Numbered from the stretch's first letter, positions 4,486 through 60,451 are shown. The stretch is 64,000 bases of DNA from Bacilli bacterium (GCA_045536365.1 JAZSNL010000014.1:19473-83472), one strand, 5' to 3'. Numbers and translations are program-made. The notes: generated from the sequence alone by a model not told the origin.

Positions 4486-6513
4486 CTACTGTATTTCTAT
4501 TTTTTTAGTTTCAAAATCTTTTAAATATAATTCTAAATCTTCTTTTGTTTTATATATTATCTCTAAACAATGTAGTTGATCATATTTAATTTGATCTAAC
4601 ACATCAAAATGTTTAGTAAAATCAATAGTTCCACTACCCATTCTTCCATGTTTATCAGCTGTAGAATCATTATCACTATAATGAATATGATATAAATAAT
4701 CTTTTAATAAAGTTAAATACATAGTATCATCATATTCACTTACATGTGCATGACCTGTATCAAAAATGAATTTTAAATTATTAACATTCACTTCTTCGAT
4801 AATAAATAATATTTCTTCTGGTGAATAACCAATTTCACCATCACCAGGCATATTTTCAATCATTAAATTCATATTATATAGATTTGCATATTCAGCTAAT
4901 TCTTTAGTAACTTTAATACAATGTTTAATAATATCATCACGATTATTTTCTTTATCATACCATCCTAAATGTAATGTTAATTTTGTAACATTAAACTTTG
5001 CTGCATAATCAATTGCATCTTTTAATATTTTAACATTTTCTAAATAATTATCTAAATCACAAATACTATATCTTTTACCATGTGGTAAATGTAAAACTCT
5101 TTCTAAATAAGGATATTTTTCTAATAAACTATTAATTGAACTAGTATACTCTTCAAACTGACCTTCTTTTGTATGAATTGGATAGAATATTTCAATACCA
5201 CTAAATAAATTTTGATCAAATAAAGAATAATAAGATTCAATTTCTTCCTTGCTTCTTAATTGATTAATAGTAAAACACATCTTATCCTTTACTAATAATT
5301 TATTTATTGCAGAAATTCGATCACTCATAGGAGGATGAGAATATGATAATTTAACAATTAATGGATGTGGATTCAAATCAGCTAAATTATTTCTCGCAAG
5401 TTTTTTTAATCCAGTTATTAAATATCTTCCATAACCTTGTTCACATGCAAAACGATCCGCTGCATATTCATATTTTCTAGATAAATAACTAGTTCCCATC
5501 CCAACTACCGGCATAATAAAATCAAAAACTACTTCGGTTAAAATAATATAAATAAAACCATAATTTAATCCATCAAAGCCAAAATCAGTAAATAATCCTT
5601 TACAATAAGTCATTAACCAAATTAAAACAACAATAATAACAATATTTAATAAACTAGTAAATAAATTCTTAGTTGTATCTTTATGTTTACCATGACCAAG
5701 TTCATGAGCAAATACAGCTACTATCTCATCTTCACTCATAATATTAATTAAAGTATCATATAAAACAATTGTTTTAAATTTACCTAATCCAGTAAAATAC
5801 GCATTTGCTTTAGTAGATCTCTTTGATCCATCCATAACAAAAATATCTTTTACTTTATAACCATTATCAGTTAATAATTTTTCTAATTTAGATCTTAAAC
5901 TTCCTTCTTCTAAACTAACAAACTTATTATTAAGTTTTGCAAATTTAGAATTAAACATAAAGATAAAGATTAAAATTGCAAATACTATAGCTGTAAAAAT
6001 GATTAATGTCCATACACCAAAACTATCATGAAGAACAGCAAATAATTCAATAATACCTAATGAAATTAATATTTCAAAAATAATACCTTTAATTGTATCA
6101 CCAACGAAAGTCTTTTTATTAGTTTTATTAAATCCATACTTTTCTTCTATTTTCATAATATCAATATATCTAAATATAATTCCTGGAATAATAAAAGCAA
6201 TCTCATAAACTAAAATAACCCAAATAGTTGTTAATTCAAAATCATCTTTGCCAGGTAATAAATTAACAAAGAAACTAAAAGATTTAGTTAAAAACAATAT
6301 TAAGATAATAATAACATGAACTATTAAATTAATAAAAGTCAATTTACTTTTATCATGATTATATGATAACCATTTCTTATAAGTTGCTTCATCATAAATT
6401 TCTTTTACATTATCAGGAATAGGTCTATTAACAGACTTACTTTGTAAATTATGTAATAATGCATTATAAATGAAAGAAACAACTACTAAACTACAAACTA
6501 TAATATAAAACAT
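4486..6513 (-). CDS. fusion protein: N-terminal M48 (Ste24/HtpX-like) zinc metallopeptidase + C-terminal xylose-isomerase-like TIM barrel (sugar phosphate isomerase/epimerase, AP-endonuclease-2 fold)
   Basis: 675 aa. Multiple N-terminal TM helices. HEXXH zinc motif AHELGHGKH plus downstream E, and M48 C-terminal block ...YSHPPMSDRISAI. The C-terminal ~270 aa carries TIM-barrel motifs (HLPHG, LMIENMPG, FIFDTGHAH, HIHYSDND) like endonuclease IV / xylose isomerase-like enzymes. Confidence 0.65.
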   Translation of the reverse strand: MFYIIVCSLVVVSFIYNALLHNLQSKSVNRPIPDNVKEIYDEATYKKWLSYNHDKSKLTFINLIVHVIIILILFLTKSFSFFVNLLPGKDDFELTTIWVILVYEIAFIIPGIIFRYIDIMKIEEKYGFNKTNKKTFVGDTIKGIIFEILISLGIIELFAVLHDSFGVWTLIIFTAIVFAILIFIFMFNSKFAKLNNKFVSLEEGSLRSKLEKLLTDNGYKVKDIFVMDGSKRSTKANAYFTGLGKFKTIVLYDTLINIMSEDEIVAVFAHELGHGKHKDTTKNLFTSLLNIVIIVVLIWLMTYCKGLFTDFGFDGLNYGFIYIILTEVVFDFIMPVVGMGTSYLSRKYEYAADRFACEQGYGRYLITGLKKLARNNLADLNPHPLIVKLSYSHPPMSDRISAINKLLVKDKMCFTINQLRSKEEIESYYSLFDQNLFSGIEIFYPIHTKEGQFEEYTSSINSLLEKYPYLERVLHLPHGKRYSICDLDNYLENVKILKDAIDYAAKFNVTKLTLHLGWYDKENNRDDIIKHCIKVTKELAEYANLYNMNLMIENMPGDGEIGYSPEEILFIIEEVNVNNLKFIFDTGHAHVSEYDDTMYLTLLKDYLYHIHYSDNDSTADKHGRMGSGTIDFTKHFDVLDQIKYDQLHCLEIIYKTKEDLELYLKDFETKKIEIQ

Positions 6514-6525
6514 AAAATCCCTCTT

Positions 6526-7461
6526 TTATCTAAAGTCTAATACTTGATTTTTTATTGGATCAATAGGTGTAATTTTAATAGGCATAAAAACTAGTTCTTC
6601 TTCTTGATATTCTTCCGAAAACTGATAACTAATTCTTGCGGTTAAATGAATCCATGAATTATTCTTTAATTTTAATCCCATTAAATTATCACACAAATGT
6701 CCATATAATTGAATATCATCACTACAACAAGTCATAACTTTTCTACCAGCTATAAAAGTACCTTCTGGTAACTGTTTTGATAATATTACCATTGCATTTA
6801 ATTCAACAACTTTTCCATCATATCTTTCTTTATTATCAAAAGTATCAATATAGAAACGACCAAAATCTTGGTCTTCAATCTTAATCACTTCAGCATCAAT
6901 ATCATAAGGAAGAGGATCTTCATAAGCTTCCATAGCTTCAAAATTCTCATCCATTATTAAGATTTGCCCTTGTGAATTAATCATCTTTAAATTAACTTGA
7001 TAAGGAGTCAAATCCTGAGGATTATTAACCCTATTAAAAACAACAATATCAGATACCTTCATCATATCAACTAATCTTTGACGCATATTATTGAAATAAA
7101 TACCAAAAGTTGTAAAATCAATAAATAATAATAATTGTGCTAAACGACAAACACCAGGGAATTTTAAATTATTAACATCCCACATACCATTCATTTCAAT
7201 TACAATACGATTAGGCTTATGTTCTTTAATAGCTTTATCAAAAATCTTACTACTGAAATCTTTTTCTGAAGATATTCTAAATAAAACAATGTTATTTTGA
7301 ACTAAAAGCTCTTTAGGATATTCAACCTCTCCTTCTTCACACAAAACAAGTAATGTTTTTCCTCTACTTCCAAAACCATCATTTTCAAAAGTATTAATAA
7401 TAAATGATGTTTTACCAGAATCAAGAAAACCATTAATAATAAACGTAGGTATTTGTCCCAT
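6526..7461 (-). CDS. COG0523/CobW-like G3E GTPase paralog (degenerate, lacks CxCC metal motif)
   Basis: 311 aa. Walker A GFLDSGKTS. CobW-like architecture, but the canonical GCICC motif is replaced (LVLCEEGE). Start is 2 nt after the upstream COG0523 gene. Confidence 0.55.
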   Translation of the reverse strand: MGQIPTFIINGFLDSGKTSFIINTFENDGFGSRGKTLLVLCEEGEVEYPKELLVQNNIVLFRISSEKDFSSKIFDKAIKEHKPNRIVIEMNGMWDVNNLKFPGVCRLAQLLLFIDFTTFGIYFNNMRQRLVDMMKVSDIVVFNRVNNPQDLTPYQVNLKMINSQGQILIMDENFEAMEAYEDPLPYDIDAEVIKIEDQDFGRFYIDTFDNKERYDGKVVELNAMVILSKQLPEGTFIAGRKVMTCCSDDIQLYGHLCDNLMGLKLKNNSWIHLTARISYQFSEEYQEEELVFMPIKITPIDPIKNQVLDFR

Positions 7462-16218: not shown

Positions 16219-18609
16219 TTAGATTTGATTACCAGCAAACTGAGTTTGATATAAAGTATAATAAATTCCTTGTTTTTCAAGCAGTTCTTCATGACGTCCA
16301 ATTTCAACAATTTCACCATGGTCTAATACTACAATCTTATCGGCATCTCTGATTGTTGATAATCTATGAGCAATAATCAAACTTGTTCTATTCTTCATTA
16401 ATTGAACCATACCATCTTGAATATTCTTTTCTGTTCTAGTATCAACACTTGAAGTAGCTTCGTCTAAAATTAAGATTTTAGGATCAGCTAAAATTGCTCT
16501 CGCGATAGAAATCAATTGTCTTTGACCACCACTTAGATTACTACCAGATTCACTTAAAACAGTTTCATATTGTTCAGGTAATAATTCAATAAATTTATCA
16601 CAATTACTCAACTTGGCAGCACGATAAACTTCTTCATCAGTCGCTTCTAAATTACCATATTTAATATTATTTTTAACACTATTTTTAAATAACACTGTAT
16701 CTTGTAATACAATCGCAATTGCATTACGTAGACTTTCTTTTGAATAATTAGTTATATCTTCTCCACCAATTAGGATTTTACCACTGTTAATTTCATAGAA
16801 TCTCATTAGCAAATTAACTACTGTTGTTTTACCACTACCTGTTGCTCCTACTAAAGCAATTTTTTGTCCTGGTTCAATTGTTAAATTAAAGTTTTTAAGA
16901 ACAGGTTCTCCTTCTACATATGAGAAATTAACATCTTTAAATTCAATTGTATCAACTGCCTCTTCTTCAGTTAATTCAAGAGTTCCATCATTAACTTCAA
17001 CACTTTCATCTAACACTGCAAATACTCTTTCTGCAGCTGCTAAACTAGATTGAATTTGTGAATATAAGTTTGCAATCATATTAATAGGTCTAGTAAATTG
17101 TCTAGAAAGATTAGTGAATGTAATAATTAAACCAGTTGTTAAATTATTAATTCCTAAGAATACGAACAACGCACCAAATCCTACAATTAATAAGTAACCA
17201 ATATTACCAATAATATTCATTAAAGGTCCCATTGCTCCACCAAATAAACTAGCTTTAAAGCCAAATAATCTTAAATATCCACTAATTTCATTAAATTTAG
17301 CTTCAACATCTTCTTCCTTACCATAAGCAGCTACTGTCTTATGACCCACTACCATTTCTTCAACTTGTGCATTTAACTCACCAATTAATGCTTGTTGAAC
17401 ACGGTAATATTTTCTCATAATCTTTGTAAGTGCCTTAGTAGTCACTAAAGTTAAACCTAAAGAAACGAAACTTAATAATGTTAGTAAAGGACTATAATAC
17501 ACCATTATCGCAAAAGCACCGATAATAGTAATAACTGATGAAATAAGTGAACTAATAGATTGTGAAATTGTATTTGTAATACTATCAACATCATTAGTCA
17601 TTCTACTCATTATATCACCATGTTTATTAGTATCAAAGAATCTAATTGGTAAATAAACAAGACGATCAAATAAATCTTTTCTCATTTTTCTAACTGTATT
17701 AAGTGATAAATAAGCAGATACAACAGAAGAAATACCAGTAAAAATAGAAGATAGGATATAAACAATCATCATAGTAATCAAAATACTTACTATTTTATTT
17801 GGATTTTTAGTACCTATAGAATAGTAACCAATTGTTTTACCATTTATTTCCCACTTATTATTTTCACCAACTCTAATTTCTAATTCTTCAATTGAAGAAT
17901 TATTAACGGATTGATATAAACGATAATTAGTTAGTTTGTTATTTATAACCAAATAACCATTTTGATTAACATCAATAACAAACTCTAAATTTTTACTTTT
18001 ATCATCCGCAGAATATGCTAAAAATTCAGTTGTTTCTCCATTAATAACAAAATAATAATCTTCATTAATACTTATTTTCATATCGCTAAAGATAATATCA
18101 CTACTAGACCCATTATATTTAGTTTCTACTTTAGAATTATTTGCAAGTAAATTACCGTTTTCATCTAATTTAAATTCTAAATCACTACTTACAACGATAG
18201 AGTCTATCGCATTACCTTGTAAGACAGGACTTATAAGAGATGCTGCAGAAGATAAGATAACAATTGCAAATATTGCAATTAAATATTTTTTATTAAAAGA
18301 TAAATATTTAACAAGTCTCTTTAAAGTACCTTTTTTATCCTTAGCTTTCTCCCCAAACATTCTTCCACCTGCAGGTCCTCTATTACCTCTTGCACGCATA
18401 AGTTCAAGATTACTCATCTTATTAGAATATTTATCTAATACTTCTTGTTCTAATTCTTTTCTTTCAATTCTTTTTTGTTTTCTTTCAACTCTTTTATTTT
18501 GTCTTTCTATAACTTTAGGATTATTTTTATGTTGATTAATTATCTTATTAACATCAAACCCTTTAGTTGATAAATATAAAACTAAACTAAATAACACAAG
18601 AAATAACAT
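16219..18609 (-). CDS. ABC exporter, fused permease/ATPase subunit (type I exporter, MsbA-like) with N-terminal basic extension and large extracytoplasmic insert
   Basis: 796 aa. Six-TM exporter domain plus NBD with Walker A GATGSGKTT, signature LSGGQRQ and Walker B ILILDEAT. A ~170-aa insert follows TM1. Confidence 0.85.
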   Translation of the reverse strand: MLFLVLFSLVLYLSTKGFDVNKIINQHKNNPKVIERQNKRVERKQKRIERKELEQEVLDKYSNKMSNLELMRARGNRGPAGGRMFGEKAKDKKGTLKRLVKYLSFNKKYLIAIFAIVILSSAASLISPVLQGNAIDSIVVSSDLEFKLDENGNLLANNSKVETKYNGSSSDIIFSDMKISINEDYYFVINGETTEFLAYSADDKSKNLEFVIDVNQNGYLVINNKLTNYRLYQSVNNSSIEELEIRVGENNKWEINGKTIGYYSIGTKNPNKIVSILITMMIVYILSSIFTGISSVVSAYLSLNTVRKMRKDLFDRLVYLPIRFFDTNKHGDIMSRMTNDVDSITNTISQSISSLISSVITIIGAFAIMVYYSPLLTLLSFVSLGLTLVTTKALTKIMRKYYRVQQALIGELNAQVEEMVVGHKTVAAYGKEEDVEAKFNEISGYLRLFGFKASLFGGAMGPLMNIIGNIGYLLIVGFGALFVFLGINNLTTGLIITFTNLSRQFTRPINMIANLYSQIQSSLAAAERVFAVLDESVEVNDGTLELTEEEAVDTIEFKDVNFSYVEGEPVLKNFNLTIEPGQKIALVGATGSGKTTVVNLLMRFYEINSGKILIGGEDITNYSKESLRNAIAIVLQDTVLFKNSVKNNIKYGNLEATDEEVYRAAKLSNCDKFIELLPEQYETVLSESGSNLSGGQRQLISIARAILADPKILILDEATSSVDTRTEKNIQDGMVQLMKNRTSLIIAHRLSTIRDADKIVVLDHGEIVEIGRHEELLEKQGIYYTLYQTQFAGNQI

Positions 18610-41068: not shown

Positions 41069-41728
41069 CTATTTAGACAATATACTACCTAATCTTACCA
41101 TTGTTGAACCATGTTTAACAGCTAATAAGTAATCATTACTCATTCCCATTGATAATTCAGTACATGGAGCATAAGGTAAATTAAGTGCTTGAATTTCTTT
41201 TTGTAATTCCTGCATTGTTTCAAAGTAACTTTCTAATACATCTTCATCAAAAGTATATACAGCAGTAGTCATTAATCCAACTACTTCTATTTTTTCATAT
41301 TTTCCTAAATGTTTAATAAATGGAATTACTTTTGATTCACTAAATCCAGATTTATTTGAATTATTAGATAAATTTACTTGAACAAAACATTTTAAAGGCT
41401 CTTTTTTCTTTCTAGCTTTATTTATTGCGTTAGCTAAATCAATTGAATTTAGTGAATGTAAATAATCAATACTATCAATAAAATTACTAGCTAGTTTAGG
41501 AGGTATTTTAATATCTCCAAAATAATGCCATATAATATCATAATCTTTTAATGCTTCATATTTTGCAAGAAAAGTATCTTTACGATTTTCTCCTATTTCA
41601 TTGATACCCGCATTAACTATTTCAATTGTTTTATCTATATCAAAATATTTGACTGCTCCTATGATTCTAACATTAGGATAGTCTTTCAAAGATTCTTTTA
41701 TTTTTTTCACTTGTTCTGCGATACTCAT
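41069..41728 (-). CDS. yggS: YggS/YlmE family pyridoxal-phosphate homeostasis protein
   Basis: 219 aa. IIGAVKYFD PLP-lysine region, INEIGENR block, C-terminal GMSNDY...GSTMVRLG. Confidence 0.8.
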   Translation of the reverse strand: MSIAEQVKKIKESLKDYPNVRIIGAVKYFDIDKTIEIVNAGINEIGENRKDTFLAKYEALKDYDIIWHYFGDIKIPPKLASNFIDSIDYLHSLNSIDLANAINKARKKKEPLKCFVQVNLSNNSNKSGFSESKVIPFIKHLGKYEKIEVVGLMTTAVYTFDEDVLESYFETMQELQKEIQALNLPYAPCTELSMGMSNDYLLAVKHGSTMVRLGSILSK

Positions 41729-41762
41729 ATTATCACCCTTATTGCGTATTTTCTTTTTATAT

Positions 41763-41791
41763 ATTATACCATATTTTGATATTTTTTACAA
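41763..41791 (-). promoter_or_regulatory. sigma-A-type promoter for the yggS-sepF-ylmH-ileS transcription unit
   Basis: On the minus strand: TTGTAA, a 17-nt spacer, then TATAAT, about 35 nt upstream of the yggS start. Confidence 0.5.
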
Positions 41792-41829
41792 GGCTTTTAT
41801 AATATTGATTTTTGAGTTTATTTATTAAT

Positions 41830-41866
41830 AAAAAAGCTATTAATTTTACTTAATAGCTTTACTTTT
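41830..41866. terminator. intrinsic terminator after the lipoprotein gene
   Basis: aaagctattaa-ttttactt-aatagcttt hairpin with T-run. Confidence 0.55.
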
Positions 41867-42766
41867 TTATTCAAATGTGTCATTTTTTAAAATCTTTATT
41901 TTCTTATTGTGAAGTGAATTCAATCGTATTAAATATTCTCCATTTACATCTTTAAAAATACCCTTAGGAACAAATACTGAACATCTGTATCCAAGTAATT
42001 CTGACAAAATCTTTTTCACCGTTTCTCCTTGCGGAATTTTACCTTCAAGCAAATATTCAACTTTTATTATTAAAATCTCATTTCTTTCATTTTCATCCAT
42101 ATCTGAAGAATTATTTTCTCTCATATCATACTTTGAAAGGTAATGAAATTCTTCTAATTCTATACATACATTAAAACTAACAATTGTATCAATGCTATTT
42201 TTAGGGAATGCGTTATCTATACATTCTACTTTAACATATTCTTCAACAGAATCAATATCCATATATGTTATATAACTATCTAAACGATAATCATTCCATG
42301 AGTCATCTGATTTATTATGTGGAGTATACTCTATATCAAAAAAATTTAAATTTTTCAATTCTTCATTGCTTATATTTTTAAATACGTAACTAAAAGTAGC
42401 ATCGAATTTTATCATACTAGACAATCCTTGTTCAACATAATATTCATACATATGAGGATGAGGATAAGGTAAATAGAAGTCATGAGGATTATATCTAATT
42501 TTATATTTGTAATTTAATAATTCTAACAAATCATTCATATCAATATTATCATTAAAATTATTGATTAAAGATGTTTTAACAGACACAGAACCTTCCTCGA
42601 AACAATCGCTACCTATCACATTACCATACAAATCATATAATATAAAACTTGGATGATTTCCTTTTTTATATGGAGGAAGCGGATGGTTTCCAACAGAAAC
42701 AGGATCGCATCCCGATAATAGTATTAAACCTAATACCACTAAAATCATAAGTATTTTTCTATACAT
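41867..42766 (-). CDS. lipoprotein, hypothetical (299 aa)
   Basis: Signal peptide with lipobox LLSGC. Start overlaps the upstream secreted-protease-like gene by 8 nt. Confidence 0.6.
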   Translation of the reverse strand: MYRKILMILVVLGLILLSGCDPVSVGNHPLPPYKKGNHPSFILYDLYGNVIGSDCFEEGSVSVKTSLINNFNDNIDMNDLLELLNYKYKIRYNPHDFYLPYPHPHMYEYYVEQGLSSMIKFDATFSYVFKNISNEELKNLNFFDIEYTPHNKSDDSWNDYRLDSYITYMDIDSVEEYVKVECIDNAFPKNSIDTIVSFNVCIELEEFHYLSKYDMRENNSSDMDENERNEILIIKVEYLLEGKIPQGETVKKILSELLGYRCSVFVPKGIFKDVNGEYLIRLNSLHNKKIKILKNDTFE

Positions 42767-44744
42767 CTAAATTCTCCTCTTCTTCACAATAATTATTTTC
42801 AACATATAAACAGTTATACATATTTATAGTTTCCTTAATTTTCAAAATATCTTCATCTGTTTCTAATGAGGTAACTTGTCCTGTATCAAACCAATAAGAT
42901 GAAGTAAAAGGGCATCCGGAACAAATATAATTATGTGTAAATTTTATATAAGACATATTATGATACGAATTAATATTATATTCACCACAAGGACATACTC
43001 GCCAATGTCTAACTTCATCATACTCAATTGGCATATGATTCGAATCTAATGACGGTCCGTGATCATATAAAAAGCCACAGATCGTACAATAATACGCATA
43101 TCCAACTGGTCCATCTCGATCTTCACATATTAACATTTGAAATTCATGTTCACTTTCTTGATAAAAACAGCCTGCAGCAGAGCAATCATGACTCAAATTA
43201 TTCGTATTCATAGTTGGTTGATAATAATCAACTCTGTCACTATGGTAACTTTGGCAAGCATTACAAAAGTCATTAATAAAATAACAACCTTCAAAGAAAG
43301 TGACATCCTTCCTTATCAGAGATTCAACTATTTGATGGATACTCGAATCTTCATTAATTTCATCTGTCACTAATGTTTCCCCAAACATTGAACACGAAAT
43401 ATCCCATTTTTTCTCTTCTTTAATTTGCTCATTATACACATTTATAGCAAAAAAATTATATCCATCCGCTTTAACATATGCGTAATTATAGTATTGCATC
43501 CCAAAATTTACTTTATACCAAACATCACCATTTTCAAGTTCTACATATCCATAAGCTACTACTGCATGTGCTATCAAAGGATCAAAAACAATTGACAATG
43601 TATTATCAAAAAAAGGATAAATATAGTCTGCGCCATCAAACCCTAAAAGTACAGGAATGTTTCTATCAATACAAGAAATTATTAAATCATTTCTCAAATT
43701 AGGAGAAAAATTAATATTTTGACTATCTACATAAACCGCTAAGTCATCACCTAATTCATCTAAATTATGAATCAAATCGATGTCATTATCATCACAATAT
43801 TTCTGTAATATATCATCAACAATGGAAAAATACATTCCACCACCGGTATAAATTTTTCCAGTACAAGATCTATAGTCATCTAGAAGTTCATTTTTCAATC
43901 CAGTATTGAATCCTGGGCTTTGGTTATAGAGCACCCATTCATCATCACATAATTCATCCATTTCTTCTAACGTTTCTTCGTAATAAATAATTCCATGTTC
44001 GCTATAGTCGTCATTAACCAACCGAGTATCAGAAAAATAATTATAAAAAGATAAAATTTGCATTAAAGAAACCAATAAACAAGTACCATCAATATTTACA
44101 GGATAATTTTCGTTTAAATTTTCTAAATAATAGGCATTTTCAATTTCCCTATATAATACATTTGATATATTTTCTCCATAATATGTAGACAAAATAAGAT
44201 TTAAATCAGTTGAATTGTAATGTATTTCATAAGTCCTTTCGATATTAAAAAACAAGTTATAAACATCTGCTCTATATACATCATATACAGACTCTACATA
44301 TATGCCTTCTTCAATATAGTAGTTTAATTGTATAATTTCATCAGTTATGCAATCAAAATAATAATAATTATATGTAATATTTCCATTACTATCATTTCCT
44401 TCAATTGTATAAAACTTCAAACAATCGCTAGAAATGTCGCGCCATGGAAACGGAATATTGCCCTCCATCTCAACATTATTCAAATACCATTCGTTGTTTG
44501 AGTAACTGATAATTAGTTCAGAAGAATAAATATCGTTTAAACTGATTTGAGTGTTACCTTCTAAATATTCATATACAATATCTAAATCCCAACAATAATC
44601 ATTATAATAAACTATTTGATCTTTGTTAATAAATTCATCATTTTCAATCACTTCATTCCTAGTAGCAGCTTTTACTTCATCAGATGAAAATCGACAAAGT
44701 GAAACTACTCCAATTAAAACTAAAATATAAATCATTTTTTTCAT
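42759..44744 (-). CDS. secreted protein with a papain-fold-like (clan CA; C39/C1-like) cysteine peptidase domain candidate and Cys/His-rich C-terminal domain
   Basis: 661 aa. Signal peptide MKKMIYILVLIGVVSLC...VKA. Candidate catalytic Cys in DGTCLLVSLMQILSFYNYF (cf. C39 GPACLAMILKYYG) and His in IAHAVVAYGYVELENGDVWYK (HAVVxxGY). C-terminal ~190 aa holds about 20 Cys and many His (CNACQSYH, CPCGEY, CSGCPF). Confidence 0.45.
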   Translation of the reverse strand: MKKMIYILVLIGVVSLCRFSSDEVKAATRNEVIENDEFINKDQIVYYNDYCWDLDIVYEYLEGNTQISLNDIYSSELIISYSNNEWYLNNVEMEGNIPFPWRDISSDCLKFYTIEGNDSNGNITYNYYYFDCITDEIIQLNYYIEEGIYVESVYDVYRADVYNLFFNIERTYEIHYNSTDLNLILSTYYGENISNVLYREIENAYYLENLNENYPVNIDGTCLLVSLMQILSFYNYFSDTRLVNDDYSEHGIIYYEETLEEMDELCDDEWVLYNQSPGFNTGLKNELLDDYRSCTGKIYTGGGMYFSIVDDILQKYCDDNDIDLIHNLDELGDDLAVYVDSQNINFSPNLRNDLIISCIDRNIPVLLGFDGADYIYPFFDNTLSIVFDPLIAHAVVAYGYVELENGDVWYKVNFGMQYYNYAYVKADGYNFFAINVYNEQIKEEKKWDISCSMFGETLVTDEINEDSSIHQIVESLIRKDVTFFEGCYFINDFCNACQSYHSDRVDYYQPTMNTNNLSHDCSAAGCFYQESEHEFQMLICEDRDGPVGYAYYCTICGFLYDHGPSLDSNHMPIEYDEVRHWRVCPCGEYNINSYHNMSYIKFTHNYICSGCPFTSSYWFDTGQVTSLETDEDILKIKETINMYNCLYVENNYCEEEENLDV

Positions 44745-44857
44745 GCCACTTTAATCTCCTTTGAATCTCTCTCACTTACTTTATTATATTATATTATATT
44801 ATGTTTTACATTGCAAGAATTTTATAGCATAAACATTTAATATATTTCAACCATTAT

Positions 44858-44895
44858 CTAATAAAAATAAAAGAGCCATTTTTCAATGACTCTTT
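44858..44895. terminator. intrinsic terminator after argS (minus strand)
   Basis: aaagagccatt-tttc-aatgactcttt hairpin, with ttattttt on the minus strand. Confidence 0.55.
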
Positions 44896-53695: not shown

Positions 53696-56600
53696 TTATT
53701 CTAATGTAGCTTTATAAGCAGCGTATGCAGCATCTAACGCATCTTTACTTGCAAGAACACCATAATCAGATGTTGCTGTAGTTTGAGCAGCAGCATAATA
53801 GTTATTAGTATAAGTTATTGTACCTGAGCCTTTTGTAGTTAATTTAAATGCAGTCTGACTATCTAAATAGTTATACATAATATTTTGTTTAGATCCTGTT
53901 TGACAATCAACAAAGTTAAATATATTACCTCCAAGATTATATAATTCATTACCAATAAATGTAACAGATGAATTAGCAGTTTGATTAGGGAAATAGAATC
54001 CTGAACCAATTCCTGTTCCTCCATTGAATACATTATCTTGAACAGTAATAGTAACATCTTGTGTCATTAAAGGTCTAATGTATAAAGTATAATTGGCTGT
54101 TGCCCATAAACATTCATTATTATTGAAAACGAATGTTCCGCGTACATCGTTACATCTTGCTACTTCACTATTTGAATGAGATGTACCACCATTGCTGAAT
54201 TTATTATTTTGTATATCAGCATTAGTAAGTGTACCATAAATTGCCATTGCGTTTCTTCCAGCGGCACCAGTACATGTTATATTGTTACCGATAAATACAA
54301 AACCGTTGATTGCAACATCACTTGCAATGATTCCTGTTCTACCACCAGTAGTTGACTTACCTGTACCTGTAATAATATTATTTTTAACTGTTAAATTACT
54401 AGTTGCAGTTGCTACGTAAATAGCAGATCCAGTACCTGTTATTGATACACCATTCAAAGTAAATCCAGTCGCACTTACTGAAACAAGACCTTTAATAATT
54501 GCTTCAGAACTTCTTGTTTCATTATAAGCAACACCGTAGTTAGGACCTACTAATTTAATGTTTGCAACAGAAATAGTTAATGCTTCTGAATATGTTCCAG
54601 CAAATACATAAATTACATCATTTTCTTGTGCAGCTTCTAAAGCAGCAGTAATAGATGTAAAGATTTGAGTTCCATATGAATACTTAGTTCCATTAATTCT
54701 ATAATTAGAAACTTCGAATCCAGCATTTACAAATAATGTAGGAGCAGCTTCAGTAATTGTTGCAGCTTCTTCATCTGTTAATTCTAATTCAATAACTTCA
54801 TCTTCAGCCCATTTAGCATATAATTGATATGCTTTTTGAGAGCCTGCTTCGATTTCAGTTAATGGAGAACCTGTAAATTCAGCATTGTCATACCAACCAC
54901 CAAAGATATAACCTTCTAAACTTGGAGTAGGTAAAGCAGTTCCATCTGCTTTTAAATATTTTTCAGCGTAATTGCTACGATCAAATGCTTCTTGAGAATA
55001 TACAGTACCAGTAATAGTACAACTTGAAGATGTTTCAGCAGGAATACCAGCAAGAGTTACATATGAACCAATATAAGTTGCTTTATTATTATAAATATTT
55101 GCTAAGCTTTCATTTTCAGCAGCTGCAGGATCATACCATGTAATTGCATAATTATAAGGTTTAGTAATATTTGCATTTCCACTTACGATTTCAGAAATTA
55201 CATATAAATCTTCAATTTGAGTTTCTTGTAATAAAATATAGTACCAGTATTTAGGAGTTGCAGTTGTTAACATACCATTTCCAGCACCTCCACTATTATA
55301 TGTTAAATATCTTGTAACTGTAAATGTAGTTTGAACTTTTTCTGAGTCGTATACCCATTCAGTACCCATGTTATATGATATTTCATAAGCATTTTCAACC
55401 CAATTAGCATATAATGTTACATTTCCAGCAGAACCGCTTTCAATCTTGGTAATAGCTTCACCTGCGAATTCAGCATTATCATACCAACCAAGGAATGTAT
55501 GATTTTCTTTTGTTGGAGTTAATAAAGTGATATCAGCAGAATTAACGTTATATTTTGCAGGAGCAAATAATGCAGTACATCCAGCTTTAATCGCAGAATC
55601 AGAGTAATCAGCAGTAACAAAGTTAGCATTTTGAGTATATTTAGCTTGTCCTACCCAACCTCTTAATTCATAAGCAATTTCATAGATATAGTTACCATTT
55701 GCTGCATGTAATTCAGCTTGAGAATTATATTTATTGAAGTTAGAATAAGCAGGTTTGTTAGCACTGCTAGCAACTGTAGCAATATATTGAACTAACCAAT
55801 TCCATTTAGCTCTATAAGTAGCATTGTATAAGAATAATGAAGCATCACTTATTTCATCCCATGAACCTAATGCATAGAATGTTTCAACTGTATGAGTTTT
55901 ACCTCTTGCAGCGTTATAATCAGCTAAGAAATCTGCAACTGCAGCTTCATATGATTCGTATTGAATTAATGAACCACCATCTAATTCATAAGAAATAGTA
56001 TAAGTTGCTAATTCCCAAACTGCTGTTAATTCAATAACACCAACTACAGGAGTTTCAAAATCATAATCAACACCATTTAATTGCCATTTAACAAATGTAT
56101 ATCCTTTTAATTCAGGATCAACTGGTTTTTCTGCTTTTGAACCATGGTTAACATTTTGAGTTTCAACATCAGAACCACCATTTGAATTAAATGTTACAGC
56201 ATAAGTAATAGCCTCAAATCCAGCATATAATTTTAAATCACCAGTAGCAGTTGTAGGGATTTCAGTTAATGCATCACCAGTTAAGTCTGCATTTAAGAAC
56301 CAACCTAAGAAAGTATAACCATCTTTTGTTGCGTTAGGTAATGCAGTTGCAACACCTTCAATATATTCAGTAGGTAATCCTTCTGCAGTACCACCATTTA
56401 ATTCATAAGAAAGATTTGAAGAGATAGCGTTAGCCATCCAACCAGCATATAACACTATATCGTTATTATCATCTTTTGTTATTTCAGTAATAGGAGCACC
56501 TGTGCATTCAGCATTATCAAACCAACCAGTAAATGTATAATCAGTTCTAGTAGGAGTAGGTAATACTAATCCAAATCCAACTTTATAGAATGTAGGAGCA

Positions 56601-59600
56601 TCTACTAATGTACCTTCGTTTAAATTTAATGTTAATGATTTAGAAGGAGCCATGAAATAAGCATATTCATATTTTCTTGTTTCTTCATCAGCTAAAGCAC
56701 TACCTGCAGTAACACCAGCACCAGTAACAGTAGCAGGAACAGAATTTAATACTTGTCCTTCAGAATCTAAGTATAAGTTCTTATCAAATTGAACTGGTTT
56801 ACCACCGTTAATATGAACATACTTAGTAACATTTTCGAATACATTGAATCTTACATCAACTAATGTAGCAGATACACCAGATTCAAATAGACCATCAATA
56901 TTTTGAGTATCACCAGTGAAATGATTATCATAAACTAATGCAGAACCAATTCTAATTCTTAATAATGCAGCTGCAGAGTTAGATACACCACCACATGTTG
57001 AAGCATCAACATTATTAGAAATAAAGTTAACTTTTTCTAATCCAGCAGTTACCCATACAAAGAATTGACCGATATTATCAATATCACAATTTTGAACTGT
57101 TAATACAACTGGGTTAGTAGTAGAAATAGTTCCTTTATAGAATGTATTCATTCTAGTAATATGACAATTATTAAATGTTAAATTATAGGCTTTACTACTA
57201 GGTTGGAAATAAACACCTGCAGATGTTGCAGCAGCAGAACCTCTAAGAGTAACTGATTCAAATCTAATATCACTTGCAGCAACATTACTAGATACATTAG
57301 CAGTAACTGTAATTTCAACACCTTCAACACTTTGACCTACAAATGTTAATGACTTATTAATAACAGAGCCTAATGTATATTTACCATCTAAGATATTAAT
57401 AACAGAATCATTTTTTGCAGATGAAATAGCATCATTTAAGTTATTAAATAAGTTAACACCATAGAAATAATGATTTTCATTATATAGAACACATGCATTT
57501 TCAACAGCATCAGCTGCTACTACTATATTAGTAACATCAGCTGCCACTACTGTAAATTCAATAGTTCCTTTAATTAAAGGATCAATCATTGAAGAAACAG
57601 TAATTATAACATTACCTTCAGCAATAAATTTAACAATACCATTTTCAACAGTTGCAATTTCTTCATTAGCAGAAGCATAAGAAACTAAAGTTTGATATCC
57701 TTCAGGTCCTTCAAATGCTAATTGTAATGCTAAACTAGCACCTAACATAACTTTATTTGTAGTTGCAGAAACTGTAATTGATGTTGGAGCAACTGGTTCA
57801 ACAATAATTAATAATGCTTTCTTAGCAGCATCTAATGCTTCTTCAACACCTTCAACAGAAGTTGCAGCTGCGATTAAGCCTTTTTGAACTTCTAATTCAG
57901 CAGCAAATTCATCATAATTTTCTTCATATTTAGAAGCTTTAACGATTTCATCAGTTAAAATATATTCAGCTAATGCTTCTTGAGCAAGATTCTTAGCATT
58001 ATCAACAACATGAATCCATTTAGCATGTAATTCAAGATTACCTGTAGAACCTTTTTCAATCTTAGCGATTGCATTACCGTTAAATTCTGCATTATCAAAC
58101 CAACCTAAGAAAATGTGATCAGCTTTAATAGGTTGTATTAATTCAATATCTTCAGACTCAACAGTATATTTAGAATCAGCTAAGCAAGCCATAAATTTAG
58201 TTTTTACTTCTTCAGTTGAGTAATCGGCTGTATGATAGTTAGCATTCTCAGTATATTTAATTTGTCCTACCCAACCTCTTAATTCATAAGCTATACTGTA
58301 AATATAGTTACTATTAACAGCATTAAATTCAGCTTGACTATCATGATCATTAAATGCTTCCCAAGCTTTCTTATTAGCAGAACCAGCAACACTTGCAATA
58401 TAATCTACTAACCAAGTCCATTTAGCACGATAATTAGCATTATATAAGAATAATGATGCAGCGCCAATTTCACCCCAAGAGCCTAAAGAAGAGAAAGATT
58501 CAACAGTATGAGAAGTTCCTCTTGCAGCATTATAATCTTTTAAGAAATCAGCAACAGCTTCTTCGTATGACGCATAATTTCTTAAAATACCTTCATTAGT
58601 ATTATAAGAAATACTATATTCAACAATTTTCCAAGTTGCAACAACTTCTACATCTTCTGCAGGCATTGTAGCAGGAACTTCAGGCATCCAACCAGTAAAT
58701 GTATAACCAGCTTTTTCAGGTGCAGCAACAGCGGCAATTTCTTCTAAGTAGTCATATTCAACTTCTTGTTTAACACCATCAACATTAATTGTTAATGTAT
58801 ATTGATTAATTGTCCACTCAGCAACAACTTCTACATCTTCTGCAGGCATTGTAGCAGGAACAGCAGGTGTCCAACCAGCGAAAGTGTAACCAACTTTTTC
58901 AGGTGCAGCTGGAGCAGCAACTTCAGCTTGATAGTTATATTTAACAGTTTGTTTAACACCATCAACATTAATTGTTAATGTATATTGGTTAATTGTCCAT
59001 AAAGCAACAACTTCAATATCAGTAGCAGGCATTGTTGTAGGAATAGCAGCAGACCAAGAAGAGAATGTATAACCAACTTTTTCAGGTGCAGCTGGAGCAG
59101 CAACTTCTTCTTGATATTTATATTCAACAACTTCTTTAACACCATCAACATCAACTGTTAATGTATAAGAATTTCTTGAATAATATACTCTTAATACAAG
59201 AGATCCATCAGCTAAGATAGTAGCTGATTCTAAAGCATCTTTATGTTCAGCATTATGTTCAAAACCAGTAACTGTTCTAACAACAGCTTCTGCTTCAGAA
59301 CCAGTTTCACCAAATAATGATTCAACTTTTGCATCTTTCACATAAGAGCCATCTAATGCTTCAAAGTAATGTTCAACTTTATAAGCAGTATTTGTATTAG
59401 ATGTCCATGTTGCAACTAATTCTAAATCCTTAGCAGGCATAGATAATTCAGCAAATGCTTCGCCTTCTAGTGTCCAGCCTAAGAATGTATAACCAGTTTT
59501 AGCAGCAACACCTAAATTTAATGCTTGGCCGTATTTATAAGTTTGAGCTTCTTTTTCTTCTCCACCAGCAGCATCAAATGTTACTTTGTAAGAATTTCTA

Positions 59601-60451
59601 GAATAATAAACTTTTAATACAAGTGATCCATCAGCAGCAATTTGAGCTTCTTCTAAAGATTCAGGATGTTTTTCATTATGAGTAAATCCTTCTTTTACTA
59701 ATGCTTCAGCTTCTACTAATTCTTCAGTAGTACCAGCTAATTTTTCACTTGATTCTAATTTATATGTTCCATCTAAAGCTTCAAAGTAATGTTCAACTGC
59801 ATATGCAGTATCATCATTAGCTTCCCATTTTGCATATAATTCGATTGCTTCTTCTGTTAAAACAGTATTCCAATCAAATAAACTAGTTAAAGTTTTATCA
59901 TACCAACCAAGGAATGTATAACCAACTCTTGTAGGATCAGCTGGTTGTTTACCTTGTAATGTTTGACCTACTTCAACTTCAACGATAGGTTCAACTGCAG
60001 TTCCACCATTTGAAATGAAACTTACTGTTCCACCAAATTGTTTATATGCAACTTGTACATATACTTTACCTTCGTTATCACAGATAGCTTCAGTAATATT
60101 TAATAAATTATTAACTTCAGCCTCTGGATCTAGATCGATAGGTTCTTTTTCATCATTTAATAATACCCAATAAACTTCGTAAGAAGATGGAATTTCATAA
60201 CCATCAGCTTTTAATTGATCACGAATTTGAGGTATTTGAGAAACTAAAAGAGTTTCTCCTTTTACAACTTCGATTTCTTTAGTTGATACAACAGTACCTG
60301 CTGCATCATTAAAGATGAAGACTACTTTATAAGTATCTAGTTTTGAACTATCAACAGGTCCATGATCTAAAGAACATGATCCAAGTGTTAATGCGATAGC
60401 AGCAAAAACAAGAATAAATAAAGCTTTAATACGAGACTTTACATTTTTCAT
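53696..60451 (-). CDS. giant cell-surface lipoprotein (2251 aa) with Listeria-Bacteroides repeats, parallel beta-helix (pectate-lyase-like) regions, Big_2 domain and internal duplicated modules
   Basis: Lipobox LTLGSCS. At least 10 GYTF.GW...A.W motifs (PF09479-type). Two regions dense in NN..TGTG / GxNxxC beta-helix repeats. Big_2-like segment ITVSATTNKVMLGASLALQ...IITVSS. Three tandem 59-aa repeats and two ~130-aa duplicated modules. Confidence 0.8.
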   Translation of the reverse strand: MKNVKSRIKALFILVFAAIALTLGSCSLDHGPVDSSKLDTYKVVFIFNDAAGTVVSTKEIEVVKGETLLVSQIPQIRDQLKADGYEIPSSYEVYWVLLNDEKEPIDLDPEAEVNNLLNITEAICDNEGKVYVQVAYKQFGGTVSFISNGGTAVEPIVEVEVGQTLQGKQPADPTRVGYTFLGWYDKTLTSLFDWNTVLTEEAIELYAKWEANDDTAYAVEHYFEALDGTYKLESSEKLAGTTEELVEAEALVKEGFTHNEKHPESLEEAQIAADGSLVLKVYYSRNSYKVTFDAAGGEEKEAQTYKYGQALNLGVAAKTGYTFLGWTLEGEAFAELSMPAKDLELVATWTSNTNTAYKVEHYFEALDGSYVKDAKVESLFGETGSEAEAVVRTVTGFEHNAEHKDALESATILADGSLVLRVYYSRNSYTLTVDVDGVKEVVEYKYQEEVAAPAAPEKVGYTFSSWSAAIPTTMPATDIEVVALWTINQYTLTINVDGVKQTVKYNYQAEVAAPAAPEKVGYTFAGWTPAVPATMPAEDVEVVAEWTINQYTLTINVDGVKQEVEYDYLEEIAAVAAPEKAGYTFTGWMPEVPATMPAEDVEVVATWKIVEYSISYNTNEGILRNYASYEEAVADFLKDYNAARGTSHTVESFSSLGSWGEIGAASLFLYNANYRAKWTWLVDYIASVAGSANKKAWEAFNDHDSQAEFNAVNSNYIYSIAYELRGWVGQIKYTENANYHTADYSTEEVKTKFMACLADSKYTVESEDIELIQPIKADHIFLGWFDNAEFNGNAIAKIEKGSTGNLELHAKWIHVVDNAKNLAQEALAEYILTDEIVKASKYEENYDEFAAELEVQKGLIAAATSVEGVEEALDAAKKALLIIVEPVAPTSITVSATTNKVMLGASLALQLAFEGPEGYQTLVSYASANEEIATVENGIVKFIAEGNVIITVSSMIDPLIKGTIEFTVVAADVTNIVVAADAVENACVLYNENHYFYGVNLFNNLNDAISSAKNDSVINILDGKYTLGSVINKSLTFVGQSVEGVEITVTANVSSNVAASDIRFESVTLRGSAAATSAGVYFQPSSKAYNLTFNNCHITRMNTFYKGTISTTNPVVLTVQNCDIDNIGQFFVWVTAGLEKVNFISNNVDASTCGGVSNSAAALLRIRIGSALVYDNHFTGDTQNIDGLFESGVSATLVDVRFNVFENVTKYVHINGGKPVQFDKNLYLDSEGQVLNSVPATVTGAGVTAGSALADEETRKYEYAYFMAPSKSLTLNLNEGTLVDAPTFYKVGFGLVLPTPTRTDYTFTGWFDNAECTGAPITEITKDDNNDIVLYAGWMANAISSNLSYELNGGTAEGLPTEYIEGVATALPNATKDGYTFLGWFLNADLTGDALTEIPTTATGDLKLYAGFEAITYAVTFNSNGGSDVETQNVNHGSKAEKPVDPELKGYTFVKWQLNGVDYDFETPVVGVIELTAVWELATYTISYELDGGSLIQYESYEAAVADFLADYNAARGKTHTVETFYALGSWDEISDASLFLYNATYRAKWNWLVQYIATVASSANKPAYSNFNKYNSQAELHAANGNYIYEIAYELRGWVGQAKYTQNANFVTADYSDSAIKAGCTALFAPAKYNVNSADITLLTPTKENHTFLGWYDNAEFAGEAITKIESGSAGNVTLYANWVENAYEISYNMGTEWVYDSEKVQTTFTVTRYLTYNSGGAGNGMLTTATPKYWYYILLQETQIEDLYVISEIVSGNANITKPYNYAITWYDPAAAENESLANIYNNKATYIGSYVTLAGIPAETSSSCTITGTVYSQEAFDRSNYAEKYLKADGTALPTPSLEGYIFGGWYDNAEFTGSPLTEIEAGSQKAYQLYAKWAEDEVIELELTDEEAATITEAAPTLFVNAGFEVSNYRINGTKYSYGTQIFTSITAALEAAQENDVIYVFAGTYSEALTISVANIKLVGPNYGVAYNETRSSEAIIKGLVSVSATGFTLNGVSITGTGSAIYVATATSNLTVKNNIITGTGKSTTGGRTGIIASDVAINGFVFIGNNITCTGAAGRNAMAIYGTLTNADIQNNKFSNGGTSHSNSEVARCNDVRGTFVFNNNECLWATANYTLYIRPLMTQDVTITVQDNVFNGGTGIGSGFYFPNQTANSSVTFIGNELYNLGGNIFNFVDCQTGSKQNIMYNYLDSQTAFKLTTKGSGTITYTNNYYAAAQTTATSDYGVLASKDALDAAYAAYKATLE
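58640..59170. repeat. three tandem 177-nt repeats inside the giant lipoprotein gene
   Basis: Encode YTLT(I/V)(N/D)VDGVK...GYTF.GW...EDVEVVA.W (59 aa) x3. Near-identical DNA copies are visible at 58.75-59.15 kb. Confidence 0.75.

Follow-up and report, generated by a model that had tools for sequence, protein, structure and literature searches.

The locus described here lies in a stretch of 64,000 nucleotides from a Bacilli bacterium (GCA_045536365.1, JAZSNL010000014.1:19473-83472), hereafter the window, by which the whole of that stretch is meant, with a guanine-plus-cytosine (GC) content of ~27%. Two overlapping genes on its minus strand are found between argS and yggS-sepF-ylmH-ileS, with all of these genes on the same strand. 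The first encodes a protein of 661 amino acids (aa) and the second a lipoprotein of 299 aa; both open reading frames (ORFs) called by an initial annotation of this DNA were recovered (Table 1), as was the 8-nt overlap that it reported between the start of the lipoprotein gene and the stop of the longer gene (ATGTATAG). A protein identical to the 661-aa product (P0001) is present in the NCBI collection. We consider it probable, at about 0.72, that the longer gene encodes a secreted papain-fold (clan CA) cysteine peptidase from a divergent branch near Peptidase_C39_2 in low-GC gut Firmicutes, and that the lipoprotein is its partner.

The assignment of the 661-aa protein to clan CA (C39/C1-like) had been made in the initial annotation from a candidate catalytic Cys followed by a candidate His, and both of the motifs quoted there are present: GTCLLVSLMQILSFYNYF at residues 220-237, which includes Cys222, and IAHAVVAYGY... 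at residues 391-411, which includes His393. Relatives of the protein are few. A word-indexed search of 5.8 billion proteins returned only the peptidase's own cluster, and the same kind of search with a profile added one family member. When 1.8 billion representative sequences were searched exhaustively with phmmer, six proteins came up; two of them, P0022 (979 aa) at E = 4e-6 and P0024 (558 aa) at E = 9.6e-4, align with residues ~169-426. Pattern scans of genomes and metagenomes gave further members, for a total of about a dozen among billions of proteins. Where a family locus has an organism label, the source is a metagenome-assembled genome labelled Bacilli, Mollicutes or Staphylococcaceae, and several of these genomes belong to human gut datasets.

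The placement of the family follows from these relatives and from what has been conserved among them. Three members score above the gathering cutoff of Peptidase_C39_2 (PF13529; 24 bits), namely P0022 with 26.5, P0024 with 29.6 and P0025 with 27.1 bits, and 6 of the 12 family cores match this model. Pairwise identity within the family is only 22-29%, and a small set of residues is nevertheless invariant: Y206, N209, L210, N217, C222, S276-P277, L287, P364, H393, Y400 and G415. The order of the catalytic residues, Cys and then His, is unchanged across 8-12 members, and the catalytic residues are intact in three strain variants. Position 413 is Asn in the window protein and in P0025 and His in the other members. 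When the family profile was compared with all PDB sequences, only clan CA chains were returned (ficin, E = 0.02; 3erv, E = 0.041; cathepsin K, bromelain and rhodesain), and the alignments fall on the region of the catalytic His, 'NxPV ... HAVxxxGY'. His393 aligns with the catalytic-His motif of the papain-family chains and with His159 of papain.

Structure prediction points in the same direction. A model of the core alone, made with AlphaFold2 (AF2), reached a predicted template modelling score of 0.68 and a mean predicted local distance difference test (pLDDT) of 59, with values of 70-84 for the catalytic elements. In this model a long helix (37-52 in model numbering) begins with Cys222, His393 opens a strand (208-218) that is followed by a hairpin, and Asn413 ends the hairpin strand 223-228. 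A Cys at the helix N-terminus together with a His on the facing strand and a hairpin is the signature of the papain fold, and the model is predicted to carry all three. The Foldseek search recommended in the initial annotation agreed with this core topology: the top 50 PDB matches are almost wholly clan CA peptidases, including Treponema denticola TDE_0362/T-Mac, Pd_dinase, staphopain, IdeS, streptopain, cathepsin L and falcipain, and phytochelatin synthase and USPs are also listed. The same clan CA pattern was seen with a viral fold library, in which mycobacteriophage Lysin A is among the weak matches.

We therefore regard the 661-aa protein, with fair confidence, as a secreted clan CA cysteine peptidase homolog with a putative Cys222/His393/Asn413 triad and with Asn217 as the likely oxyanion-hole residue. 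According to this proposal, the protein would first be exported by the Sec pathway. From its position at the N-terminal end of the core helix, Cys222 would then attack a peptide or amide bond, with His393 on the facing beta-strand serving as general base, Asn413 orienting His393, and Asn217 helping to form the oxyanion hole. The lipoprotein would be a membrane-anchored partner of the peptidase, for which the roles of tether or cognate inhibitor are favoured, and the target may be an extracellular protein, whether it comes from the host, from the diet or from a competitor or belongs to the surface of the producing cell itself.

Table 1. Positions of the features of the peptidase/lipoprotein locus, counted from the first nucleotide of the window
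Feature	Position	Strand	Remark
Coding sequence of secreted clan CA cysteine-peptidase homolog (probable), 661 aa	42759..44744	-	stop codon included
Coding sequence of orphan lipoprotein, 299 aa	41867..42766	-	stop codon included
Promoter-like element TTGCAA-17-TATAAT ahead of 661-aa gene	44788..44816	-	10/12 matches
Shine-Dalgarno AAAGGAG of 661-aa gene	44756..44762	-	11 nt before ATG
Shine-Dalgarno GAGGAG of lipoprotein gene	42774..42779	-	within peptidase gene 3' end, 7 nt before ATG
Intrinsic terminator of upstream argS	44870..44895	-	11-pair stem AAAGAGTCATTGAAAAATGGCTCTTT then T-run
Signal peptide, residues 1-27, MKKMIYILVLIGVVSLCRFSSDEVKAA	44664..44744	-	read from sequence
Family-specific N-terminal domain, residues 28-185	44190..44663	-	beta-rich, Tyr/Asn-rich
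Papain-fold catalytic core (predicted), residues 186-447	43404..44189	-	
Asn217 codon	44094..44096	-	invariant, 5 residues before nucleophile; candidate oxyanion-hole residue
Cys222 codon	44079..44081	-	candidate catalytic nucleophile; invariant in all members
His393 codon	43566..43568	-	candidate general base; invariant in all full-length members
Asn413 codon	43506..43508	-	candidate third triad residue; two residues before invariant Gly415
C-terminal region, residues 448-661	42762..43403	-	Cys/His-rich module (15 Cys, 9 His)
Lipoprotein signal peptide, lipobox L-S-G-C, Cys20	42707..42766	-	
1785-bp (595-codon) segment deleted in sister strains	42897..44681	-	in-frame; absent in L001, L002, L004
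7-bp direct repeats TTCATCT bounding deletion	44688-44682, 42903-42897	-	

On either side of its catalytic core the 661-aa protein carries accessory regions. Its N-terminus resembles a signal peptide, consisting of MKK and 13 hydrophobic residues, with a putative cleavage site at VKA|A. Lipidation of this protein is unlikely because the lipobox around Cys17 (VSLC) is non-canonical. The N-terminal domain of ~160 aa is weakly conserved in 10 family members, is nearly absent in P0025 and matched no family in a Pfam scan; it may be a pro-region or a substrate-binding domain. The C-terminal region, which closes with the acidic stretch EEEENLDV, had been described in the initial annotation as containing at least 20 Cys in ~190 aa and as a novel tail. 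The enrichment is real, whereas the count and the uniqueness had been overstated: the count for residues 471-661 is 14 Cys and 8 His, against 24 Cys in the entire protein, and the tail is homologous to repeats of surface proteins. Cys makes up 7.3% of these last 191 aa compared with 1.27% in the other 50 window proteins (about six-fold, binomial p = 2e-7) and His 4.2% compared with 1.8% (p = 0.025).

The Cys residues of the tail are arranged in CxxC or CxC pairs (494/497, 553/556, 584/586 and 608/611), with a repeat unit of the form HW-x2-C-x-C-G ... H ... C-x2-C. Residues 552-612 match P0023 in five stretches that correspond to its tandem repeats (E = 9.2e-5 in the phmmer search of 1.8 billion proteins). 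P0023 itself, a 598-aa protein encoded outside the window, contains about five 53-aa Cys/His tandem repeats (HWxECxCG ... H ... C ... CxxC ... H) and, after them, BspA-type leucine-rich repeats (LRRs). Tails of a similar kind follow the core in L010, L011/L016, P0024 and P0025. Pfam holds no model matching this repeat, and a PDB sequence search gave weak rubredoxin-like knuckle matches (E ~0.7). In keeping with these knuckle matches, the modules are probably small and zinc-ribbon-like and may bind metal, and the tail most likely serves binding or stability and not catalysis. The P0023-type repeat would seem to be a small extracellular domain that has escaped curation and occurs widely in these low-GC bacteria. 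In L016, the lipoprotein (5536-6954, plus strand) encoded after a 683-aa homolog opens with four near-identical tandem repeats, HSWIEATCEQAKHCTTCGKTEGEVLE, which form a Cys/His module similar in style to the peptidase tails and belonging to no Pfam family.

The two genes appear to form one transcription unit, as suggested by the promoter-like site, the upstream terminator, the overlap and the internal Shine-Dalgarno sequence. The terminator of argS is predicted to insulate the pair from argS transcription, and the presence of a promoter-like site and a Shine-Dalgarno sequence of their own after that terminator makes the two genes look like one dedicated unit; the promoter call for the 661-aa gene is a consensus match only (10/12). 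A terminator-like hairpin at 42700-42714 on the minus strand (CGGGATGCGATCCTG and a T-rich tail) falls within the part of the lipoprotein gene that codes for the lipobox and is probably due to chance, and short plus-strand ORFs at 43028-43702 inside the peptidase gene were taken as shadow ORFs.

The second protein begins MYRKILMILVVLGLILLSGC, and the canonical LSGC lipobox with Cys20 reported for it was confirmed; it agrees with the pattern [LVI][ASTVI][GAS]C that closes the signal peptide of bacterial lipoproteins (Lgt/Lsp substrates). Its only relatives are one 90% cluster and a single 42%-identical protein, P0019, the lipobox of which is LSAC; scans against Pfam, NCBIfam, PHROG and PADLOC assigned the 299-aa protein to no family. 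The initial annotation had suggested that the distribution of the pair be checked in relatives, and the pairing was found to recur: of 9 distinct peptidase loci, 7 have a lipoprotein gene directly downstream. When one fixed lipobox rule was applied, a lipoprotein gene was counted at 6 of the 9 peptidase loci compared with 3 of 74 other genes (Fisher p = 1.7e-5). The spacing varies, from the 8-nt overlap in the window and a 4-nt overlap in L005/L007 through overlapping genes in L012 and a 12-bp gap in L016 to gaps of 150-580 bp before the lipoprotein gene in L008/L013, L010 and L014. What does not recur is the partner itself. The downstream lipoproteins range from 159 to 472 aa, with BspA LRRs in one and Cys/His repeats in another; signal peptides aside, no homology was found among them, and none resembles the peptidase N-domain. 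What is conserved in the pairing is thus the position and the class of the second protein, without homology, and a tether, an inhibitor, a substrate or plain co-location in surface-protein islands are all possible roles for the lipoprotein. One such island is seen in L008 (3822-9939), where a 237-aa internally duplicated secreted protein, the 979-aa homolog with Big_2 domains, the 159-aa lipoprotein and a 580-aa Flg_new protein are encoded together. The 580-aa protein has a further peptidase-like core with Cys and His, the second at this locus, and shares its C-terminal domain (...RNKGR.xIGD...) with L012 and L017.

Comparison of sister strains shows that the locus is variable. In three contigs, L001 (5737-6000), L002 and L004, most of the peptidase gene has been removed in-frame between direct repeats, in flanks that are ~99% identical to the window, while L018 and L019 keep the full gene. 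The remnant has decayed further in the deletion strains, with ATG changed to ATA, the Shine-Dalgarno sequence AAGGAG to AAGAAG, and GAA to a TAA stop. An exact copy of the promoter-like element is found in all five sister-strain contigs, the three deletion contigs included; the Shine-Dalgarno sequence of the lipoprotein gene is kept in all strains, and the lipoprotein gene is intact in the deletion contigs. The three contigs share one junction, which suggests a single recent event and says little about long-term retention.

A different type of change is seen in L003, a short contig that ends before the rest of the locus. Its positions 1-1088, compared with window positions 41725-42850, are 99% identical (83/84 nt) over the last ~84 nt before the lipoprotein start, and identity then falls to 50-68% through the lipoprotein gene and beyond, where a different downstream terminator is found. 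A near-identical peptidase 3' end (99%) is thus joined to the 42%-identical lipoprotein allele (P0019), and the drop at the gene junction looks like a recombination breakpoint.

Within the species, both genes have a high ratio of nonsynonymous to synonymous rates (dN/dS). For the peptidase, nonsynonymous to synonymous changes are 27:8 and 15:4, corresponding to a dN/dS of 0.76-0.85, and for the lipoprotein they are 7:1, 12:2 and 10:6 (dN/dS 0.37-1.6). By comparison, the flanking ileS has 1:17 (dN/dS 0.01) and all housekeeping flanks lie at 0-0.24 (Fisher p = 7e-8 for the peptidase and p = 7e-4 for the lipoprotein against the flanks). The module is accessory, fast-evolving and subject to fast turnover at the cell surface. 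Such dynamics would fit an arms-race partner of the inhibitor or immunity type and are also compatible with relaxed constraint.

The first of these two possibilities is the least unlikely of the alternatives that we considered. By analogy with protease-inhibitor and toxin-immunity modules, and with a logic like that of staphopain/staphostatin or SpeB/Spi, the lipoprotein would be a cognate inhibitor that shields the producer's surface from a peptidase that is offensive or hazardous to the producer itself, and peptidase-less strains would hold it as an 'orphan immunity' gene. The tight translational coupling of the two genes, the recurrence of a lipoprotein downstream of family members and the intact lipoprotein gene, promoter and Shine-Dalgarno sequence in the three contigs without the peptidase are consistent with this idea, as are lipoprotein dN/dS values of at least 1 in several comparisons and the deep allelic split (42% identity) with its breakpoint exactly at the gene junction, as expected of arms-race partners. 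However, the partners of homologous peptidases share no detectable homology and differ in size and type (159-472 aa, one with BspA-type LRRs); the lipoprotein is unlike the peptidase N-domain, in contrast to the prodomain mimic Spi; neither PADLOC nor any other system matched; and the three deletion contigs, being one recent event, are weak evidence for long-term retention. The 99%-identical peptidase 3' end next to a 42%-identical lipoprotein in L003 is also hard to fit with tight co-evolution, unless contact is made elsewhere. Less likely still is a bolder version, in which an undescribed extracellular protease/lipoprotein module of gut Firmicutes uses a fast-diversifying, recombination-swapped lipoprotein to neutralise or dock a secreted papain-fold enzyme with a zinc-ribbon-like Cys/His tail, with orphan protection after the enzyme has been lost. 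If true, the pair would follow the logic of toxin and immunity protein outside the cell, with a clan CA peptidase in the place of the toxin.

The second possibility, that the peptidase is a decaying or non-functional relic and the lipoprotein a coincidental neighbour in a secreted-protein island, we hold to be improbable. The near-neutral dN/dS of the peptidase, the presence of the deletion with lost ATG, lost Shine-Dalgarno sequence and new stop in about half of the sampled contigs, and the variants affecting the protein itself would all be explained by decay: P0002 has lost tail Cys through C653Y and a four-residue SGCP deletion, and P0003 carries G220D near the nucleophile. The non-homologous lipoproteins and the several secreted proteins side by side in L008 would likewise suit a chance neighbourhood. 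Against this, the 1986-nt ORF is intact in three independent samples of a 27% GC genome, in which stops arise easily, the catalytic residues are kept in all variants, the motifs are invariant across a family with so little overall identity, the 8-nt overlap with its internal Shine-Dalgarno sequence is kept, and lipoprotein adjacency is enriched over background (p = 1.7e-5).

Least probable of all is a secreted peptidoglycan endopeptidase that remodels the cell's own wall or spore cortex or lyses neighbours. In its favour, Peptidase_C39_2 is listed and used among endolysin catalytic domains (bioRxiv 10.64898/2026.04.25.720813), the weak matches in the viral fold library include mycobacteriophage Lysin A, the host is a walled spore former with GerA, and sepF and ylmH, which serve cell division, are neighbours of the gene. 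Against it, no family member contains a LysM, SH3b, CW_binding or PG_binding domain, and the accessory domains that were found, namely Big_2, Flg_new, Cys/His repeats and a weakly matching PPC, are characteristic of adhesins and secreted proteases; neither pattern scans nor tblastn found phage relatives, no PHROG matched, and the gene is dispensable and strain-variable. A phage endolysin with a C39_2 domain was set aside on the same grounds: no cell-wall-binding Pfam domain in any member, no phage relatives and no PHROG match.

It should be noted that a number of observations weigh against the preferred reading, that of a secreted clan CA peptidase with a lipoprotein partner. Pfam and NCBIfam scans of the 661-aa protein gave no match, the Peptidase_C39_2 hidden Markov model did not detect it even at E <= 1 or 10, and a PDB search with its sequence alone returned nothing meaningful; weak matches to DarA_C, GCDPHdlase and DUF5623 were taken as chance, and PHROG and PADLOC scans of both proteins gave nothing significant. 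Since the window protein has no direct match to a curated model, its placement near Peptidase_C39_2 is transitive. The best PDB profile match (E = 0.02) is not significant singly, and an alignment of the family with papain by hhalign gave a probability of <1%, which is not significant. The full-length AF2 model, built on a 6-sequence alignment, had a pLDDT of 35.5, the core model with its mean of 59 from an alignment of the same depth is only moderate, and none of the Foldseek matches to the PDB (best E = 6.6e-3, TM 0.2-0.39) is significant singly. The papain fold also houses amidases, acyltransferases and peptidoglycan endopeptidases, so that cleavage of proteins is only a candidate activity. 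As for the partnership, the lack of homology among the downstream lipoproteins counts against it, and the cluster of secreted proteins in L008 means that adjacency could reflect surface-protein islands and not a specific partnership. For the putative role as inhibitor, immunity protein or anchor, on the other hand, neither this lack of homology nor the intact lipoprotein gene of the deletion strains is helpful or excluding. Finally, a within-species dN/dS near 0.8 is indistinguishable from neutral drift, and the gene may hence be decaying. The clan CA call and the choice of Cys222 and His393 have held up through the relatives, the invariance of the residues, the PDB profile and the model taken together; the evidence is indirect, and no single fold match reaches significance.

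If the enzyme is active, it would stand for a branch of papain-fold peptidases of which few members have been sampled and which curated models fail to detect, and this branch would bring with it two undescribed accessory regions, the N-terminal domain and a tail of Cys/His mini-modules common to other surface proteins. The recurrent lipoprotein partner, the presence or absence of the peptidase and the lipoprotein allele swap would mark the locus as one under pressure from host, phage or competitor, and it could serve as a small model of the turnover of secreted proteases and surface partners within a gut species.

Elsewhere in the window, a GerA-family spore-germination receptor subunit is encoded at 29976-31331 on the plus strand (E = 4e-69), and together with its neighbours at 28919-29983 and 31328-32365 it probably forms a three-gene gerA-type operon. 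The presence of GerA indicates that the host, with its 27% GC, is a walled spore-forming Firmicute and rules out a wall-less Mollicute. A giant surface lipoprotein of 2251 aa, encoded ~9 kb from the pair (53696-60451, minus strand), has the lipobox LGSC and no fewer than 7 Flg_new (Listeria-Bacteroides) repeats. A 675-aa ORF (4486-6513, minus strand) is an unusual fusion of an M48 (HtpX/Ste24-like) membrane metallopeptidase in its N-terminal part with a xylose-isomerase-like TIM barrel (AP_endonuc_2) in its C-terminal part.

Among known systems, the nearest is Peptidase_C39_2, represented by 3erv ('putative C39-like peptidase'). Relatives of the window protein pass the cutoff of this family, the Cys motif precedes the His motif in both, and both motifs of 3erv align in order with the family profile (E = 0.041). 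The window protein differs in going undetected by the model, in having its Cys and His 171 residues apart owing to a long insertion, in adding the N-domain and the Cys/His-rich tail, and in having Asn or, in relatives, His as the third triad residue. Bacteriocin-processing C39 domains such as those of ComA and LagD are cytoplasmic N-terminal parts of ATP-binding cassette (ABC) exporters and cut double-glycine leaders. They belong to the same clan, and a true C39 peptidase of this type was excluded because the window protein stands alone, has a signal peptide and no ABC fusion, and is flanked by argS and the lipoprotein gene; the nearest ABC transporter genes of the window lie at 16219-20336, ~22 kb from the peptidase.

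The papain family C1 (papain, cathepsin K/L, ficin and rhodesain) aligns with the window protein at the catalytic His through the motifs 'NxPV...' and 'xHAVxxxGY', and the core model predicts the papain-like succession of a Cys at a helix N-terminus, a His on a strand and an Asn-bearing hairpin. The oxyanion-hole residue of papain is Gln19, and in the window protein the Gln found 6 residues before the Cys is replaced by Asn217, 5 residues before Cys222. The profile matches are marginal (E = 0.02-0.3), no C1-type prodomain was detected, and the His-to-Asn spacing is 20 instead of 16. Given these marginal matches, the hhalign result of <1%, the Asn in place of Gln and an N-domain without a Pfam match, the protein was not assigned to family C1.

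The best Foldseek matches, T. denticola TDE_0362/T-Mac (PDB 9arc, 9mdm; PMC11833123), SpeB (C10), the staphopains (C47), IdeS (C66) and Pd_dinase of P. distasonis (3pw3, 5wdk), are secreted or surface enzymes of host-associated bacteria, and Ig-like Big_2 domains as in T-Mac also occur in the relatives P0022, L009 and L014. The resemblance is limited to TM values of 0.2-0.39, with no sequence similarity and other prodomains, and none of these enzymes has a Cys/His repeat tail; their substrates (immunoglobulin G, complement etc.) cannot be transferred to the window protein.

With regard to gene order, the locus recalls the staphostatin and Spi systems in that the protease gene is followed immediately by a partner gene. 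In the staphopain-staphostatin and SpeB-Spi pairs, the gene for a secreted clan CA protease of a Firmicute is followed by a small co-transcribed gene for its cognate inhibitor, and staphostatins and Spi are cytoplasmic proteins of ~100-110 aa without a signal peptide. The window partner is instead a 299-aa exported lipoprotein with a signal peptide, resembling neither the peptidase N-domain, a candidate pro-region, nor the partners at other loci, among which there is no homology, and the pair was not counted as one of the staphostatin/Spi type. Taken together, the peptidase is a divergent branch of a known enzyme class and not a new mechanism class or kind of system; as read from the sequences, its tail is a shared though uncurated module, and its lipoprotein neighbour is recurrent while differing in ancestry from locus to locus.

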